A stretch of 64,000 nt of DNA, taken from contig CAZAOT010000003.1 in the NCBI GenBank assembly GCA_964487045.1, positions 136,983 through 200,982 of the forward strand, read 5' to 3'. Both the position numbers and the translations under genes were made by a program. Below are positions 1,812 to 6,298 of this stretch, in pieces. Within the stretch, counting starts at the first letter, position 1, and every line of letters starts with the position of its first letter. Below the pieces are notes generated by a model. It was not told the origin of the DNA and made no database searches. It saw only the letters and a list, made by a program, of their open reading frames with translations. This DNA is from an uncultured Candidatus Saccharibacteria bacterium (GTDB lineage: Bacteria > Patescibacteriota > UBA1384 > DTJR01).

Positions 1812-1921
1812 AGTGGGGAATATATTTGAAAAGATTCTGGGGGTGAAATTTGAAAACAATATTGCTCATCTACCAAAGATTTTGATGCGTAAAGAAATAA
1901 TGCCAAAAATAAAAGAGTATT

Positions 1922-2230
1922 TTGAGGAAAATGAATAAATATCAAAAGCAAGTGGATAAGTGGTTTAAAGAAGAGGATTGGAAGTACTGGCATCCGCTTG
2001 GGCAAATGGCTGCGATGATGGAAGAAACTGGAGAGTTAGCTAGAATTGTAAATCATCTTTATGGTGAGAAGCCGAAAAAGTCGACCGAGAAGAAACAGGA
2101 GCTAGAAAGTGAGATCGGAGATGTTTTATATGTTTTAATTTGTTTAGCCAATACAGCTAATATCGACCTTGATAAAGCAATTGAAAAAACAATTAAAAAA
2201 GTGACCACGAGAGACAAGGGTAGATATTGA
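1922..2230 (+). CDS. MazG-like nucleotide pyrophosphohydrolase
   Basis: 102-aa ORF with EETGELA and EIGDVLYVLICLAN helices typical of the MazG NTP-PPase fold. Confidence 0.7.
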   Translation: MRKMNKYQKQVDKWFKEEDWKYWHPLGQMAAMMEETGELARIVNHLYGEKPKKSTEKKQELESEIGDVLYVLICLANTANIDLDKAIEKTIKKVTTRDKGRY

Positions 2231-2471
2231 TCTTTGTGACTAACAAAATATGACCCCAAAGGGGTCGTCTCGTTGGTGGGAGGGCGTTTTTGAGGTGGTA
2301 CTCAAAAACTAATGTTGTGGACGAGAAAGGCAGTATGAGAGGACTCGGTCACCGGTCGATTTCTCCTGAAATAAAAATGTCCAACTTCGCCATAAGGCTA
2401 CGCTGGACAAACTTCTTTACTATACTTCGGTGGCTCGCCAAGCGAAGCCACAATTTTATTGTGGCGAAGTT

Positions 2472-2489
2472 TGGTGGGCGGGAGAGGAC
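2472..2489. repeat. 18-bp direct repeat of the tRNA-Leu 3' end (tggtgggcgggagaggac); putative att-site copy at the element's left boundary
   Basis: Exact 18-nt match to 5574-5591. This is the reverse complement of the CCA end, discriminator, acceptor stem and start of the T-stem of the tRNA at 5574-5659. Confidence 0.7.
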
Positions 2490-2614
2490 CCCCTCTCAGT
2501 CAAAATCTGCTGATTTTGCTTCGAGGCTGGCCTCGTGCCGTCGCACTCCGGCCTTCGAGTCCTCTTTCCTATCAATAGTTCAAAAAACTGCGCCTGTTGG
2601 CGCATTTCTTTGCT

Positions 2615-2708
2615 TGGTGGTGCATAATGGAAATTGTTCGAACGCATTTCGCCGGCGAAGCCGGCGTGAAAAACACCCCCGAAAATTCCCGACTGAATTC
2701 TGAACTTT
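2615..2708 (+). repeat. inverted repeat A, + copy (TGGTGG core plus 88-bp arm)
   Basis: Positions 2621-2708 are 100% identical to the reverse complement of 3881-3968. The arm contains the hairpin CGCCGGC-GAA-GCCGGCG. Confidence 0.9.
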
Positions 2709-2781
2709 GACAATTTCAACTTTTTAGTGAGCAAAGCTCACTAGAGAAATCTTACCAGATTTCTCTCTTGGCGGCAAATTC

Positions 2782-3813
2782 CTAACCGTAATTTTTGATT
2801 AGTTTTTTCGAGAACCAATGATATTTTCCGAGACCTACCAAAAAACTCAGTAAAGTGTTGGAAAGTCGGTTATTAAGCTTAGTCAAAAAATTCGCGGACG
2901 AAAGGACCCTCTCGTGTCTGCGCTTAATCCTTAAAATTTCAGCAATGCCTTCGCATTTGTATTTAGGATTTACAATTCTATGTGCGACATCTCTTCCCGA
3001 AACTAAACCAAAATAAATTCCTTCACCAGTCAATCCAGAGGCAAAACCACCAGCGTCACCAACAAGAAATTTATTTCCAAATTCAAACCCTTGATAATCA
3101 AAATTTATTGTCCAACCTTGCAATTTTGAACCTTGAATATCGATTTGTTTATCGGCTAGCCATCGATGAAATGCTTTCTGCAGAGTTGAAGGTCTGAAAC
3201 TTCTTGTATCCTGACAGCAGCCAACCGAAGTATAGCCTTTATGTGGGAAAATCCACGAATATCCGCTTCCAAAAAGACTGGTATCAACATGATACTCCAT
3301 ATTTTTCAAATTTTTAGGAATAAAATATTGAATTGCCATGAGAAATTTATTGTTTTTCAAACCAAGCGATTTTCTGACGAGCGAGTTGCTTCCGTCTGCT
3401 CCAACTAAATACTTGAATGAAATTTTTTTACCGTCGGCTACGACAAAGTTGGTGCCGATTTCGGTTACATTACAACAAGTCTTAACAGTTGTTTTTGTGG
3501 AGAGTTTATTGGCTAAAAATTTGCCTAATTTGCCCCGATCAATCGTTCCCACGAAAGGAATACTGCCATTTGAAATTTTTACATTTTTTTCTTTTGAGGA
3601 AGCTATGACTTCAGAGAATAAAATTTCAGCAGTATCAAGTGGAATGTTTAAATTTTCAATTTTCGTTGTCAGCCCGCCAGCACAAACCTTTGGGCCAATC
3701 TCATTGTTTTTTTCTAGCAACAAAACCGTCATTTCTGACTTTTGCAATTCAATAGCACAGCTTAACCCAGCTGGCCCAGCGCCAACAATAATTACATCGT
3801 ATCCATCTATCAT
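2782..3813 (-). CDS. FAD-dependent oxidoreductase, geranylgeranyl reductase family
   Basis: 343 aa. The N-terminal GxGxxG Rossmann motif (DVIIVGAGPAGLSCA) and overall layout resemble the geranylgeranyl reductase / FixC family. The gene is flanked by the inverted repeat A pair. Confidence 0.7.
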   Translation of the reverse strand: MIDGYDVIIVGAGPAGLSCAIELQKSEMTVLLLEKNNEIGPKVCAGGLTTKIENLNIPLDTAEILFSEVIASSKEKNVKISNGSIPFVGTIDRGKLGKFLANKLSTKTTVKTCCNVTEIGTNFVVADGKKISFKYLVGADGSNSLVRKSLGLKNNKFLMAIQYFIPKNLKNMEYHVDTSLFGSGYSWIFPHKGYTSVGCCQDTRSFRPSTLQKAFHRWLADKQIDIQGSKLQGWTINFDYQGFEFGNKFLVGDAGGFASGLTGEGIYFGLVSGRDVAHRIVNPKYKCEGIAEILRIKRRHERVLSSANFLTKLNNRLSNTLLSFLVGLGKYHWFSKKLIKNYG

Positions 3814-3880
3814 AAAAATTTTCTTTTACAAAACAATGATTCGAGCCGATATTTTTGAACAGGTTTCTTTGGCAGTTTTG

Positions 3881-4067
3881 AAAGTTCAGAATTCAGTCGG
3901 GAATTTTCGGGGGTGTTTTTCACGCCGGCTTCGCCGGCGAAATGCGTTCGAACAATTTCCATTATGCACCACCATTTCGGAAAGAGCAAGTTTTCGGTTT
4001 GCGCCTCGCTTCGCTCGGCGACAAGTTTGTAGGGAATTTTCGGAACAATTTGCCACTTTCGATTTTG
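3881..4067 (-). repeat. central inverted copy of repeat A (3881-3968), CCACCA core (3969-3974) and repeat B (3975-4067)
   Basis: Reverse complement matches A at 2621-2708 (88/88) and B at 5481-5573 (93/93). The junction is the same 6-bp core as at the other sites. Confidence 0.9.
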
Positions 4068-4121
4068 AATGCATTTGTAAAAGAAAATTTTTATGAAATT
4101 TAGGAATAAATAAGGAGGAAA

Positions 4122-5675
4122 ATGAAATACATAATTTATGCCAGAAAAAGCACGGAAGAAGACGACAGACAAATTTTGAGTATTGAAGCGCAGCTTCATG
4201 AACTTTCTGAATTTGCCGCCAAAGAAAAACTTGAAATTGTCGCTTCTTTTCAGGAAGCCAAAACTGCCAAAAAACCTGGGCGAACAAAGTTCGCTGAAAT
4301 GTTAGAAATGATTGAGAAAGGAAAAGCGGACGGAATACTCTCGTGGCATCCTGATAGGTTGGCAAGAAATAGTGTTGACGGCGGGAAGATTATTCATTTA
4401 GTCGACCAAGGTAAAATCAAATCCTTGAAGTTCCCAACATTTTGGTTTGAACCAACTCCGCAAGGACTTTTTATGCTCCAAATTGCTTTTGGTCAAAGTA
4501 AATACTATGTCGATAACTTACGAGAAAATGTCACACGAGGTATGAATCAAAAAGTTAGAAATGGTGTTTGGCCATGTCTTGCTCCAATCGGTTATTTGAA
4601 TAATCCAAAAACCAGAGGAATTGATTTGAATAAAAAAAGGTCATTAATTGTGAAGAAAATGTTTGAGCTTTACGCTAGTGGAAAATACAATCTTCGGGAA
4701 TTAACCGATTGGGCGAAAGACAATAACTTCAAAAGCAATTTAGGAAGACCACTCACACCAGGGAAAATTCAAAAGATTCTCCAAAATGTTTTTTACCTTG
4801 GTCTTATGAAATACAATGGAGAAATCCATGAGGGAACTCACAGGCCGATAATCTCAAAGAAACTTTTTGATAAGGTTCAGCAAGTGATGAAAGAAAAAGG
4901 CAAACCGCATAAACAGAAAAAGCATCATTTTGCTTTTCTTGGTTTAATGAAATGCAAAAGTTGTGGTTGCTCAATTACTGCCGAAATTCAAAAAGGTCAT
5001 AATTATTATAGATGCACCAAGAAAAAGCAAAAGTGCAACGAAAAGTATATGCGAGAAGAATCACTTGTTGAACAAATTCATGAGTACCTGCAAAAAGTTT
5101 CTTTGCCCCGCCAAGACACCGAAAAGGTTTTGTTTGAGCTTCAGAAGGAAGAAACTCAAGCAAAAGAACAAGCCAAAACTTCCGTTCAATTTCTCAAAGT
5201 AAAACTTGGACAAACCGAAAAACAACTTGAAAAATTACTCGATGTTTATTTGAACGAGGTAATTACAACCGAAGAATATACTTTGCGAAAACAAAAATTA
5301 TTAAGCGAAAAACTTTCACTCAATGAGCAAATCAAAGATTTTGAACAAAAAGGCTTGTCTTGGCTCGAACCGGCCAGAGAGTTCGTTTTATCACTTGCCA
5401 AAGCTGATAAACTAAAAAATTCTGGAAATTATCCAGAAATTCTAACATTTCTCAAAAATATCGGCTCGAACCATTATCTACAAAATCGAAAGTGGCAAAT
5501 TGTTCCGAAAATTCCCTACAAACTTGTCGCCGAGCGAAGCGAGGCGCAAACCGAAAACTTGCTCTTTCCGAAATGGTGGGCGGGAGAGGACTCGAACCTC
5601 CACGCTTTTAGGGCACTAGCTCCTAAGGCTAGCGTGTATACCAATTTCACCACCCGCCCGACTGCATTATTATAG
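4122..5675 (+). CDS. large serine recombinase (resolvase/invertase N-terminal domain, recombinase domain, zinc ribbon and coiled coil)
   Basis: The N-terminus IYARKSTEEDDRQ carries the catalytic Ser in the R-x-S context. It also has GILSWHPDRLAR, a Cys-rich zinc ribbon (CKSCGCS...YYRCTKKKQKC) and C-terminal coiled-coil segments. The ORF has no stop until 5675, so its last roughly 65 codons run through repeat B and the antisense tRNA; the true C-terminus is uncertain. Confidence 0.85.
   Translation: MKYIIYARKSTEEDDRQILSIEAQLHELSEFAAKEKLEIVASFQEAKTAKKPGRTKFAEMLEMIEKGKADGILSWHPDRLARNSVDGGKIIHLVDQGKIKSLKFPTFWFEPTPQGLFMLQIAFGQSKYYVDNLRENVTRGMNQKVRNGVWPCLAPIGYLNNPKTRGIDLNKKRSLIVKKMFELYASGKYNLRELTDWAKDNNFKSNLGRPLTPGKIQKILQNVFYLGLMKYNGEIHEGTHRPIISKKLFDKVQQVMKEKGKPHKQKKHHFAFLGLMKCKSCGCSITAEIQKGHNYYRCTKKKQKCNEKYMREESLVEQIHEYLQKVSLPRQDTEKVLFELQKEETQAKEQAKTSVQFLKVKLGQTEKQLEKLLDVYLNEVITTEEYTLRKQKLLSEKLSLNEQIKDFEQKGLSWLEPAREFVLSLAKADKLKNSGNYPEILTFLKNIGSNHYLQNRKWQIVPKIPYKLVAERSEAQTENLLFPKWWAGEDSNLHAFRALAPKASVYTNFTTRPTALL
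5481..5579 (+). repeat. inverted repeat B, + copy (93-bp arm plus TGGTGG core) abutting the tRNA 3' end
   Basis: Positions 5481-5573 are 100% identical to the reverse complement of 3975-4067. The core at 5574-5579 is the tRNA ...ACCA end on the opposite strand. Confidence 0.9.
5574..5659 (-). tRNA. tRNA-Leu (anticodon TAG), type II with long variable arm
   Basis: I folded this by hand from the reverse complement. It has a 7-bp acceptor stem (GGGCGGG/CCCGCCC), anticodon stem CTAGC/GCTAG with loop CTTAGGA (anticodon TAG), a roughly 15-nt variable arm, T-arm GGAGG-TTCGAGT-CCTCT and an encoded CCA. Confidence 0.85.
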
Positions 5676-5722
5676 GTTAAAATTTAAAATTTGTCTATAA
5701 GAAGGAGTATTTATTGCCCTAA

Positions 5723-6298
5723 TTGATTTATTCTGTTACGATTTTTTATGATATGGATAAAGAAACATCTAATCAGGAAAATCTATCAAAGCAGTCAGGC
5801 GAAAAAGATCTGATTATTTTTAGGCAAAGTCGTGATCGACTTTATCTTGATTTAGCAATTGTCGCTCTGGCATTTATCGGTCTTTGTATAATGTTCTATA
5901 GTTCGACTTTCTTTAATCCAATAGTTTTGATTATTTTATTTTTCATCATTATCTTAGTCTGTATTACTGTTTATGTATCATGGTATTTTACTATATTTAA
6001 AATTACTACTATCAGGGTTGAATATAAATCCGGATTAATTTCTAAGATAGAAGAAGAAATCGCTCTTGAGGATATTCAGACTGTTGATACTGTCCAGTCT
6101 TTAATAGGTCGCCTTTTGAATCATGGTGATATCAAAATCGAGTCGGCTGGTAATAACATTATTATTTTAAAAAATGTACATAATGCTCATAATCTTGCCC
6201 ATCAGATAGCAACCTTGTCACTCAATTATAATAAGTCTGTCGAAATTGATGACGATCATGTTCCATTCGATAAAGATATCGATAAAACTTATCGGTGA
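5723..6298 (+). CDS. membrane protein with bacterial PH (YdbS/YdbT-like, DUF304) domain
   Basis: Two N-terminal transmembrane helices are followed by a roughly 80-aa segment (IRVEYKSGLISK...GDIKIESAGNNIIILKNV) with the bPH_2 pattern. Confidence 0.5.
   Translation: MIYSVTIFYDMDKETSNQENLSKQSGEKDLIIFRQSRDRLYLDLAIVALAFIGLCIMFYSSTFFNPIVLIILFFIIILVCITVYVSWYFTIFKITTIRVEYKSGLISKIEEEIALEDIQTVDTVQSLIGRLLNHGDIKIESAGNNIIILKNVHNAHNLAHQIATLSLNYNKSVEIDDDHVPFDKDIDKTYR

Follow-up and report, generated by a model that had tools for sequence, protein, structure and literature searches.

The window analysed here is a 64-kb stretch of a contig from an uncultured Candidatus Saccharibacteria bacterium (all coordinates below are positions in it), and the locus of interest lies near its left end, between a MazG gene (1931–2230) and a gene for tRNA-Leu(tag). 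Two divergently transcribed modules occupy this interval, one carrying a large serine recombinase (LSR) and the other a single cargo gene, and the interval holds a real mobile element. It belongs to a very large Patescibacteria family whose members each insert a single cargo gene, which varies between loci, at the CCA terminus of nearly any tRNA gene. A gene for a bPH_2 membrane protein and the atp genes follow on the right, and the DNA at 2200–2700 is non-coding and GC-rich (0.46–0.53, with surroundings at about 0.36). An initial annotation of this DNA had listed GC-rich non-coding DNA, an opposite-strand cargo gene and a recombinase open reading frame (ORF) running into the tRNA, all of which are present, and had named the same housekeeping flanks, on which ORF calls and Pfam agree. 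Its proposal of a compact LSR-driven integrative element with a cargo gene at the 3′ end of tRNA-Leu is supported by the domain content of the recombinase and by a survey of related loci. The features of the element and its target are as follows.

2615–2708, plus strand: left arm of the cargo-module inverted repeat, read as attL (tRNA-mimic half-site plus host flank) from self-comparison and family junctions
2709–2781, minus strand: inverted copy of recombinase segment P (reverse complement of 4209–4241), the conserved downstream cassette boundary
2782–3813, minus strand: cargo gene, a 343-aa flavin adenine dinucleotide (FAD)-dependent oxidoreductase of the geranylgeranyl-reductase type (Pfam; NCBIfam)
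3810–3880, minus strand: conserved upstream cassette boundary, with inverted copies of c, a and Q
3881–4067, plus strand: unit U, read as an intact attP; right arm of repeat A (3881–3974) plus left arm of repeat B (3969–4067)
4074–4096, plus strand: conserved motif c, TTTGTAAAAGAAAATTTTTATGA, upstream of the recombinase gene
4122–5675, plus strand: LSR ORF of 517 aa, running into the tRNA gene (Pfam Resolvase, Recombinase and Zn_ribbon_recom)
4209–4279, plus strand: segment P-s-Q in the 5′ coding region of the recombinase, where s is the hairpin GCTTCTTTTCAGGAAGC
5452–5475, plus strand: segment a, near the end of the confidently modelled protein and copied upstream of every cargo gene
5481–5579, plus strand: right arm of the recombinase-module inverted repeat, read as attR (element half-site plus tRNA)
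5574–5659, minus strand: intact tRNA-Leu(tag), the target gene (ARAGORN; Rfam tRNA model, 58 bits)
5669–5697, minus strand: promoter-like site for tRNA-Leu, TAGACA-17-TATAAT, 11 of 12 matches, by consensus match only

Self-comparison reveals two pairs of perfect inverted repeats that are absent from the initial annotation. Repeat A (2615–2708 and 3881–3974, 94 bp, 100% identical) brackets the cargo gene, and repeat B (3969–4067 and 5481–5579, 99 bp, 100% identical) brackets the recombinase. Their inner arms overlap by CCACCA (3969–3974) and form the contiguous 187-bp unit U (3881–4067), whose halves recur inverted at both ends of 2615–5579. The outer arms begin with TGGTGG at 2615 and close with the TGGTGG at 5574 that is the CCA end of the tRNA gene. 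In U, a conserved mimic of a tRNA 3′ end (GTTCGAAC, 16 nt, CACCA) forms the left half-site, and the reverse-complemented 3′ coding end of the recombinase forms the right one. Between its arms the cargo gene is framed by inverted copies of recombinase-module segments. The copy of P downstream of it is broken by two small hairpins (2726–2767), and upstream of it lie copies of c (3810–3832, reverse complement of 4074–4096), a (3835–3858, close to the reverse complement of 5452–5475) and Q (3860–3880, close to the reverse complement of 4259–4279). Motif c stands upstream of the recombinase and of every cargo gene, and from this placement it is presumed to be a promoter or leader. An Rfam scan of 1900–6000 (E≤1) returned the tRNA as its sole match, and the GC-rich arms and the tRNA relics described below fit no known RNA family.

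The family-conserved part of the recombinase spans 4122–5579 (486 aa). It begins with a resolvase catalytic domain (PF00239, 84.6 bits, residues 4–150), in which the serine nucleophile S10 and R8 are invariant or nearly so among 51 homologs, and continues with the recombinase domain and a zinc ribbon with coiled coil (PF07508, 60 bits; PF13408, 29.4 bits). The initial annotation had called for a comparison with known LSRs, and this bears out the LSR domains in Pfam, with the C-terminal domain of A118/LI integrase as the closest solved structure (4kis/6dnw; the match to 4KIS is weak, E about 1e-7). Curated family models score the protein far below their cutoffs (CcrB, 104 bits against 900; CcrA, 68 against 700; CcrC, 48 against 900; XisF likewise), and the IS607 model matches the catalytic core only, at 31 bits against a cutoff of 110, so that the enzyme is not an IS607-type serine transposase. 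In the structure model (mean predicted local distance difference test score, pLDDT, only 66.6) long helices span residues 330–377 and 383–410 and the last helix spans 437–449. The reading frame has no stop codon within the element: its last 32 codons are antisense tRNA, and homologs likewise end in translated antisense tRNA (for example ...DSN...). The tail encoded by the arm (residues 447–486) is modelled as unstructured, with pLDDT below 50 from residue 447 and values of 25–37, and judging from this model the arm need not belong to the functional protein. Synonymous-site conservation along the gene (mean 0.55) peaks in P (0.92, the highest value), in a (0.84) and also in the arm hairpin. A perfect 15-bp inverted repeat inside the gene (4855–4869, CAAAGAAACTTTTTG; 5091–5105, CAAAAAGTTTCTTTG), also found in a related locus (L003; L-numbers denote related loci fetched for comparison), coincides with further peaks of 0.81 and 0.79, which suggests a conserved DNA or RNA structure within this coding region.

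More than 7800 homologs of the recombinase were found, with more than 500 matches among species-representative genomes; protein identity is 65–90% across classes. The best 120 homologs are 66–91% identical, and wherever the source is named they come from assemblies of Patescibacteria, the candidate phyla radiation (CPR). An exact-protein look-up of the 517-aa ORF gave no match because contigs break in the arms. With regard to a viral origin, only two partial matches occur among 2.9 million viral contigs. One homologous protein, P0011 (865 aa), consists of a distant full-length serine recombinase fused through its tail (...FPYNLLAANGGAAS...) to a 5′-truncated family recombinase starting AFGQSKYY, and its sequence probably reflects one element inserted in another.

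In order to define the family we fetched 83 related loci, and counts below are restricted to those with sufficient flank or a testable repeat. About 80 independent Patescibacteria assemblies share the two-module layout. Of the 73 loci with flank, 61 have a tRNA gene on the minus strand that overlaps the recombinase 3′ end, and 25 tRNA species serve as targets, including those for Leu, Ala, Arg, Lys, Tyr, Asn, Gln, Met, Val, Gly, Ile and Phe. Among testable loci, 58 of 59 have repeat B, with a median length of 100 nt and 99% identity, and 41 of 53 have repeat A, with a median of 93 nt and 99% identity. Every two-module locus has the same order, arm-P-cargo-c-a-Q-arm/arm-c-recombinase(P,Q,a)-arm-tRNA. 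The arms are about 99% identical within a locus and only 64–68% identical between loci, which implies concerted evolution or regeneration. Even distant recombinases (46–48% identical; L004 and L043) adjoin tRNA-Ala and have inverted repeats of 136–144 bp around the gene. In L034 (5700–6796), L022 (9455–9532) and L001 (11458–11520) the right junction is a second type of tRNA-mimic half-site (TGGTG..TACCAAGCTCGAACCTATTTTC) rather than a tRNA, which places attP-type sites on both sides of the recombinase in longer chains of modules. Beyond this junction L034 has a small helix-turn-helix (HTH) gene flanked by repeats and then the beginning of a further serine recombinase, so that some chains exceed two modules.

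Perfect inverted repeats could in principle be fold-back chimeras made by an assembler. The arms are 100% identical in the window, metagenome assemblers do produce inverted chimeras, and contigs often end at the arms. On the other side, the same architecture with locus-specific arms is seen in the roughly 80 assemblies, which come from many studies and assemblers; independent Logan unitigs of the same organism cross from unique DNA into each arm for 14–30 nt and match the window exactly there; and arm identity has fallen to 78–89% in some loci, as expected of real old repeats. Independent Logan contigs of the same organism, retrieved with AtpC, the cargo protein and MazG, also reproduce the window junctions, so an artefact is improbable enough to be practically dismissed. 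Many public contigs end in or beside the element (L021, L022, L035, L049, L054, L058, L064, L079, L083 and others), and one of them, the 1.47-kb contig L054, bears a coverage label of 116x. These observations are consistent with the element acting as a multi-copy repeat that breaks assemblies.

The ends of the element were located by aligning U, the left junction and the right junction of about 40 loci in the tRNA sense and counting the boundaries of identity. Between the left junction and U, identity ends at tRNA position 74 (13 loci), 75 (2 loci) or 76 (11 loci); in the 11 loci that reach position 76 the host flank happens to continue CA, and everything beyond is unrelated host DNA. Between the right junction and U, identity begins at position 71 in 26 loci and at position 73 in L048, where the tRNA ends ...GCGTACCA and U reads ...CAGCACCA, so that the two are shared from A73. 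Because of these boundaries the exchange point should lie within tRNA positions 72–74, most simply at A73-C74 (G73-C74 for tRNA-Asn and tRNA-Gln). The triads thus display the short crossover and the attL/attR hybrids of serine-integrase systems, with one locus 1 nt off. With a crossover at 72–74 the inserted DNA amounts to 2,959 bp, and the crossover dinucleotides would be the following.

2617–2618: putative crossover dinucleotide GT of attL
3971–3972: putative crossover dinucleotide AC of U (attP)
5576–5577: putative crossover dinucleotide GT of attR

The core of U tracks the target: it reads CACCA at A73 tRNAs and AGCCA at the G73 tRNAs for Asn and Gln; Ala and Val loci have xCCACCA, and the window has CCACCA. 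Family members share a strongly conserved left half of U (GAAATGCGTTCGAACTATTTCAAGAATACTGCACCA). Its T-loop-like GTTCGAAC precedes CACCA by 16 nt in all loci inspected, against 11 nt in tRNAs. In LI integrase the outer motif, which is bound by the zinc ribbon, lies 5 bp nearer the centre in attB than in attP (Rutherford et al., PMC3783163), and the same 5-bp shift is found here on one half-site only. A crossover in the CG of the T-loop was also considered and was rejected, as the 3′ halves of the tRNA genes are intact and target-specific.

The model that we favour takes the anatomy, family conservation, junction logic, target range and cargo diversity as its observations, and infers from them the activity of the enzyme, a circular form and the roles of U and the repeats. 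It holds that an LSR element probably spans 2615–5579, with its crossover at tRNA positions 72–74 and U as its attP. The recombinase would join the attP of the element to the 3′ end of tRNA-Leu (attB) by conservative site-specific recombination. The attB half-site would be the segment from T-loop to CCA that is common to all tRNAs, which would be why the family can use at least 25 tRNA species. One attP half-site would be the conserved mimic of that segment, with GTTCGAAC set 5 bp further out, and the other would be the 3′ end of the recombinase reading frame; because of this second half-site the ORF would cross attR into antisense tRNA. Before insertion the attB junction would have read ...GCGCATTTCTTTGCT joined directly to TGGTGGGCGGGAG. 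The element would consist of two modules, the recombinase and one exchangeable single-gene cassette, each with an inverted repeat of about 100 bp around it because a second intact attP (U) lies inverted between them. On excision the element is predicted to form a circle, about 3 kb in size, that carries attP twice in inverted orientation, and the tRNA-like sequences to the left of 2615 would be older tRNA-end relics (2273–2614, including the 18-mer at 2472) pushed away from the tRNA gene.

The initial annotation had instead bounded the element by an 18-bp direct repeat, TGGTGGGCGGGAGAGGAC, and taken 2472 as its left end. This 18-mer does exist in exactly two copies in the 64-kb window, at 2472–2489 and 5574–5591, the second of which covers the CCA, discriminator, acceptor strand and T-stem strand at the 3′ terminus of tRNA-Leu(tag). 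No further copy occurs in the window with up to three mismatches allowed, and shuffled sequences predict 0.01. A 3.1-kb element with its crossover inside this repeat, as in classical tRNA islands, would account for an exact match so far beyond chance and for the 15–18-nt tRNA 3′-end repeats that lie 140–260 bp left of the conserved arm in L026, L081 and L011. Such islands rely on a tyrosine integrase, and ORF calls and Pfam find no tyrosine recombinase in 2231–5722. A repeat comparable to the 18-mer is present in only four of about 45 related loci and lacking in about 40 of them, and the junction triads place the crossover at 72–74 rather than within the repeat. Moreover, the family-conserved arm starts at 2615 and not at 2490, with a terminator oriented for the tRNA just outside it, and the flank holds further tRNA relics of the kind also found beside an unoccupied tRNA gene in L100. 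We therefore regard neither the repeat as the att core nor 2472 as the end of the element, and give the 18-mer boundary little chance of being correct. The features of the left flank are listed below.

2252–2266, minus strand: terminator-like hairpin GACCCCAAAGGGGTC, the ancestral flank that abuts the tRNA-Leu 3′ end in L100
2273–2355, plus strand: oldest tRNA-Leu 3′-end relic, TGGTGGGAGGGCG (2273–2285) and GAGAGGACTCGGTCACC (2335–2351), from direct reading and homology to L100
2472–2489, plus strand: copy of the 18-mer, 125 bp outside the element, read as a relic of an earlier event
2548–2575, plus strand: degenerate tRNA 3′ piece (T-loop and T-stem), TTCGAGTCCTCT, in the opposite orientation to the 18-mer
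2579–2604, minus strand: intrinsic terminator TGCGCCAACAGGCGCA (2604–2589) with T-run, oriented for the tRNA-Leu transcript

The relic at 2273–2355 is split by a 49-nt insert containing a hairpin and is homologous to L100 2–72 and 190–234. The 18-mer copy and the piece at 2548–2575 form a small palindromic module of T-loop and T-stem sequence that is also found in L081, L011 and L100. The terminator at 2579–2604 is, on its sequence and orientation, tRNA-Leu's own, displaced 3 kb by the insertion, and the parting of the tRNA from its terminator supports 2615–2620 as the true left end of the element. Transcription of tRNA-Leu from the putative promoter at 5669–5697 would run antisense into the recombinase gene.

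Two relatives with an unoccupied tRNA-Leu, L100 and L091, were found by scanning for the 3′ 30-mer of the gene. L100 has a tRNA of 94% identity and a similar right flank, and the tRNA 3′ end there directly abuts a homolog of window 2245–2272, namely the hairpin GACCCCAAAGGGGTC followed by GTCTCGT; in the window the same sequence precedes the relic at 2273–2285. The whole of 2273–5573 is therefore accreted DNA, made up of the 2.96-kb element and about 340 bp of older relics. In L100 itself the hairpin, GTCTCGT and the first 10 nt of the tRNA end are duplicated (1–30 and 204–233), on either side of a palindromic module that spans about 170 nt and whose arms derive from tRNA sequence. The mazG and DHH genes of L100 are inverted and lie on the other side of the tRNA, and the tRNA block has therefore been flipped between the two lineages. 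In the window a 65-aa ORF (1741–1938) overlaps the end of the DHH-family ORF (1002–1811, 269 aa) in a different frame, and the DHH/DHHA1 gene at 1002–1938 may be frameshifted or split; an independent contig (L088) has an identical 269-aa gene call. L091 (1–125, oriented), together with L096, has a tRNA-Leu(tag) 99% identical to that of the window and no adjoining recombinase. The 3′ side of its tRNA shows a 37-nt palindrome and then an inverted tRNA-mimic piece, GGTTCGGATTTCGTCAAACAAACGCACCA, a structure that from its sequence we take to be a recombinase-less scaffold or scar. The suggestion in the initial annotation that the element may be mobile holds on an evolutionary time scale, with the closest relatives at other tRNAs and carrying other cargo, and with tRNA-Leu unoccupied in L100 and L091.

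The cargo gene of the window has an NCBIfam geranylgeranyl-reductase match of 145 bits, just below the cutoff of that model, and an identical protein is present on a separate Logan contig (L087). Across the surveyed loci the cargo comprises 47 ORFs of 43 Pfam families that are mutually unrelated (about 13% mean identity to the window cargo protein), among them PsbP-like proteins, methyltransferases, NAD(P)H-hydrate dehydratase, and NUDIX, radical SAM, HTH and HD proteins. Two copies in one genome, L066 and L067, are 89% identical over the recombinase region and carry different cargo. It could be that the recombinase also swaps single-gene cassettes at a second site, P-s-Q, and captures the cargo module between palindromic arms as an integron-like platform would. 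Unrelated genes are indeed all framed alike, with Q-a-c upstream and P downstream; L041 (2300–4760, minus strand) holds an array of two tandem cassettes, each with a Q-a-c leader, a gene, a terminator hairpin and P, with an intact P-s-Q between them and no left arm; the synonymous sites of P are the most constrained of the gene; and in L058 the arms are fused to an 80-nt palindrome and the cargo is absent. However, the P-arm and arm-Q junctions lack the 17-nt s and are thus not simple products of a 2-bp crossover in P-s-Q, most loci have exactly one cassette, and one attP/attB specificity is the norm for a serine integrase. Equally, the pattern could be the relic of one ancient rearrangement followed by replacement of cargo through homologous exchange between the frames. 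Such a platform is accordingly unlikely, though it stands above the other alternatives discussed here. Also considered was a smaller recombinase circle, running from c to a, that would insert into palindromic pads. The a-c junction retained in the cargo module would agree with it, but the junction sequences are too diverged for a crossover to be placed. A reading of the recombinase module as an insertion-sequence-like element with terminal inverted repeats and a target duplication was rejected, given that its 6-nt end cores are inverted and not direct; it also fails because a symmetric attP with a direct 2-bp overlap is incompatible with CCACCA/TGGTGG.

Both genes have a single orientation relative to the arms and the tRNA in all of the roughly 50 two-module loci. 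This bears directly on the possibility that the inverted repeats are inversion sites at which the recombinase flips segments and so switches expression, for instance by placing itself behind a tRNA promoter. The perfect repeats around each gene, and the symmetric arms that keep the recombinase ORF intact in either direction, would suit such a switch, as would the co-directional recombinase downstream of a tRNA in L017 and L035, the breaks of many assemblies at the arms, and the inversion of the block from hairpin to tRNA relative to mazG between the window and L100. Besides the fixed orientation, which sets these loci apart from Hin/Gin-type invertase switches, the cores are inverted (TGGTGG against CCACCA), whereas serine recombinases need matching non-palindromic 2-bp overlaps, and the enzyme is an integrase-type protein of 486 aa and not an invertase of about 190 aa. 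We consider a switch very unlikely. In L017 (7800–9600) and L035 (7800–9506) the recombinase module occurs without a cargo module; a complete plus-strand tRNA-Ala(cgc) abuts the left arm, the right arm is followed by about 40 nt of tRNA 3′ sequence in inverted orientation, and a real tRNA therefore fills the position of the tRNA-mimic half-site.

Several observations weigh against the favoured model of a serine-integrase element with U as attP. An attP should be consumed by integration, and an intact attP-type U lies inside the integrated element in nearly all loci; such an inverted site is not predicted by canonical LSR integration and should be dangerous amid many tRNA targets. A symmetric circle with two attP sites should integrate both ways round, and the alternative composite orientation is seen in none of about 50 loci. 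The left bound of the crossover is set by L048 alone, and L071 disagrees by 1 nt. The half-site on the host side, downstream of the tRNA, shows A-richness and no other conservation. The element has no third gene, its second gene is variable, and it encodes no recombination directionality factor, which serine-integrase systems need for excision. Finally, the short Logan contigs of the same strain contain no excised circle, empty site or attB junction. The retained attP, the single orientation, the near-identical arms, the stop-less ORF with its constrained synonymous sites, and the unusual loci L017, L035, L041, L058, L034, L022 and L001 fit either cassette exchange or a folded single-strand intermediate and prove neither. 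The view in the initial annotation that the att architecture is atypical is right as to its being unusual, but the unusual feature is a different one, namely the intact inverted attP in the middle and the inverted repeats of about 100 bp around each gene.

By analogy with the folded attP of CTX phage and with integron attC, though with a serine recombinase, the double inverted repeats might allow the element to restore its attachment site from one strand alone. In such a dumbbell 2615–2708 would pair with 3881–3974 and 3969–4067 with 5481–5579, giving a 187-bp stem that is a full double-stranded attP templated by U, and the two loops would carry the recombinase and the cargo. The single strand could come, for example, from DNA uptake by these naturally competent, plasmid-poor bacteria, and transfer would be strand-specific and free of excision. 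Longer zig-zag chains of alternately inverted sites, as in L034 and at 2472–2620 of the window, would be by-products. We regard this scheme as rather improbable; if true, it would account for the persistent internal attP, the arm identity of about 99%, the fixed orientation and the lack of a directionality factor.

The enzyme resembles phage-type LSRs (A118/LI, Bxb1, phiC31) in its resolvase domain, recombinase domain and zinc ribbon with a long helical insert, and in the short crossover, the 5-bp motif shift between attP and attB and the attL/attR-like hybrid junctions. It differs from them in targeting the generic 3′ end of many tRNA genes and not one unique gene, in the retained inverted attP, the 94–100-bp inverted repeats around each gene and the ORF without a stop of its own, in having two genes with no phage and no directionality factor, and in its weak similarity to solved or curated LSRs. 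Tycheposons of Prochlorococcus are likewise small site-specific cargo elements that occupy tRNA genes of streamlined genomes. A tyrosine recombinase is used by 910 of 937 tycheposons and related cryptic elements; each tycheposon clade is tied to one tRNA and many have replication genes, and partial tRNAs and degraded elements pile up by the tRNA as islands grow away from it (bioRxiv 10.1101/2020.12.28.424599). The relics at 2273–2614 of the window fit such island growth. The present family differs in its serine enzyme, in the use of at least 25 tRNAs by one close family and in the single cargo gene, and tycheposons offer no counterpart to the layout of inverted repeats with an internal attP.

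The staphylococcal cassette chromosome (SCC) elements, moved by CcrAB or CcrC, are also LSR cassettes with variable cargo at the 3′ end of a conserved housekeeping gene; direct and inverted repeats mark their ends, and they can be arrayed in tandem or as composites. They differ in that their target is rlmH and not a tRNA, in their size of 20–60 kb and in having no internal attP, and the recombinase described here is not a Ccr. Integrons share with the element one recombinase gene by a site with diverse single-gene cassettes and conserved palindromic boundaries, but they use a tyrosine recombinase (IntI), folded single-stranded attC sites and promoterless arrayed cassettes. The present element has a serine enzyme and as a rule a single cassette, the upstream motif of the recombinase is on each cassette, and the whole unit is mobile, so that the locus is not an integron. 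Two further systems show possible resemblances. In Tn3/gamma-delta a res site lies between divergent genes and the resolvase represses both promoters; that enzyme is small and its res sites are directly repeated. A recombination site between divergent genes would be shared with the present element, and the enzyme class and biology differ. The yeast 2-micron plasmid is a small circle in which two inverted recombination sites for the Flp tyrosine recombinase part two unique segments, a layout that the predicted free circle of about 3 kb would share, again with a different enzyme class and biology.

The element thus resembles a serine-integrase integrative element in its working and a tycheposon in its ecology. 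No description of such a family was found in full-text literature searches on serine recombinases at tRNA genes, including that on Patescibacteria, and the family is apparently previously undescribed. It is a natural serine integrase aimed at a structure-constrained sequence present in every genome, the tRNA segment from T-loop to CCA, and a clean natural example of the 5-bp rule for attP and attB. The retained inverted attP, the homogenised 100-bp arms and the stop-less ORF are not predicted by current models of serine-integrase directionality, and a compact integrase with a simple, ubiquitous landing site may have practical interest. Patescibacteria have tiny genomes in which gene gain is poorly understood, and since each insertion delivers another single gene, this abundant and highly conserved family may be a principal carrier of gene flux among them.

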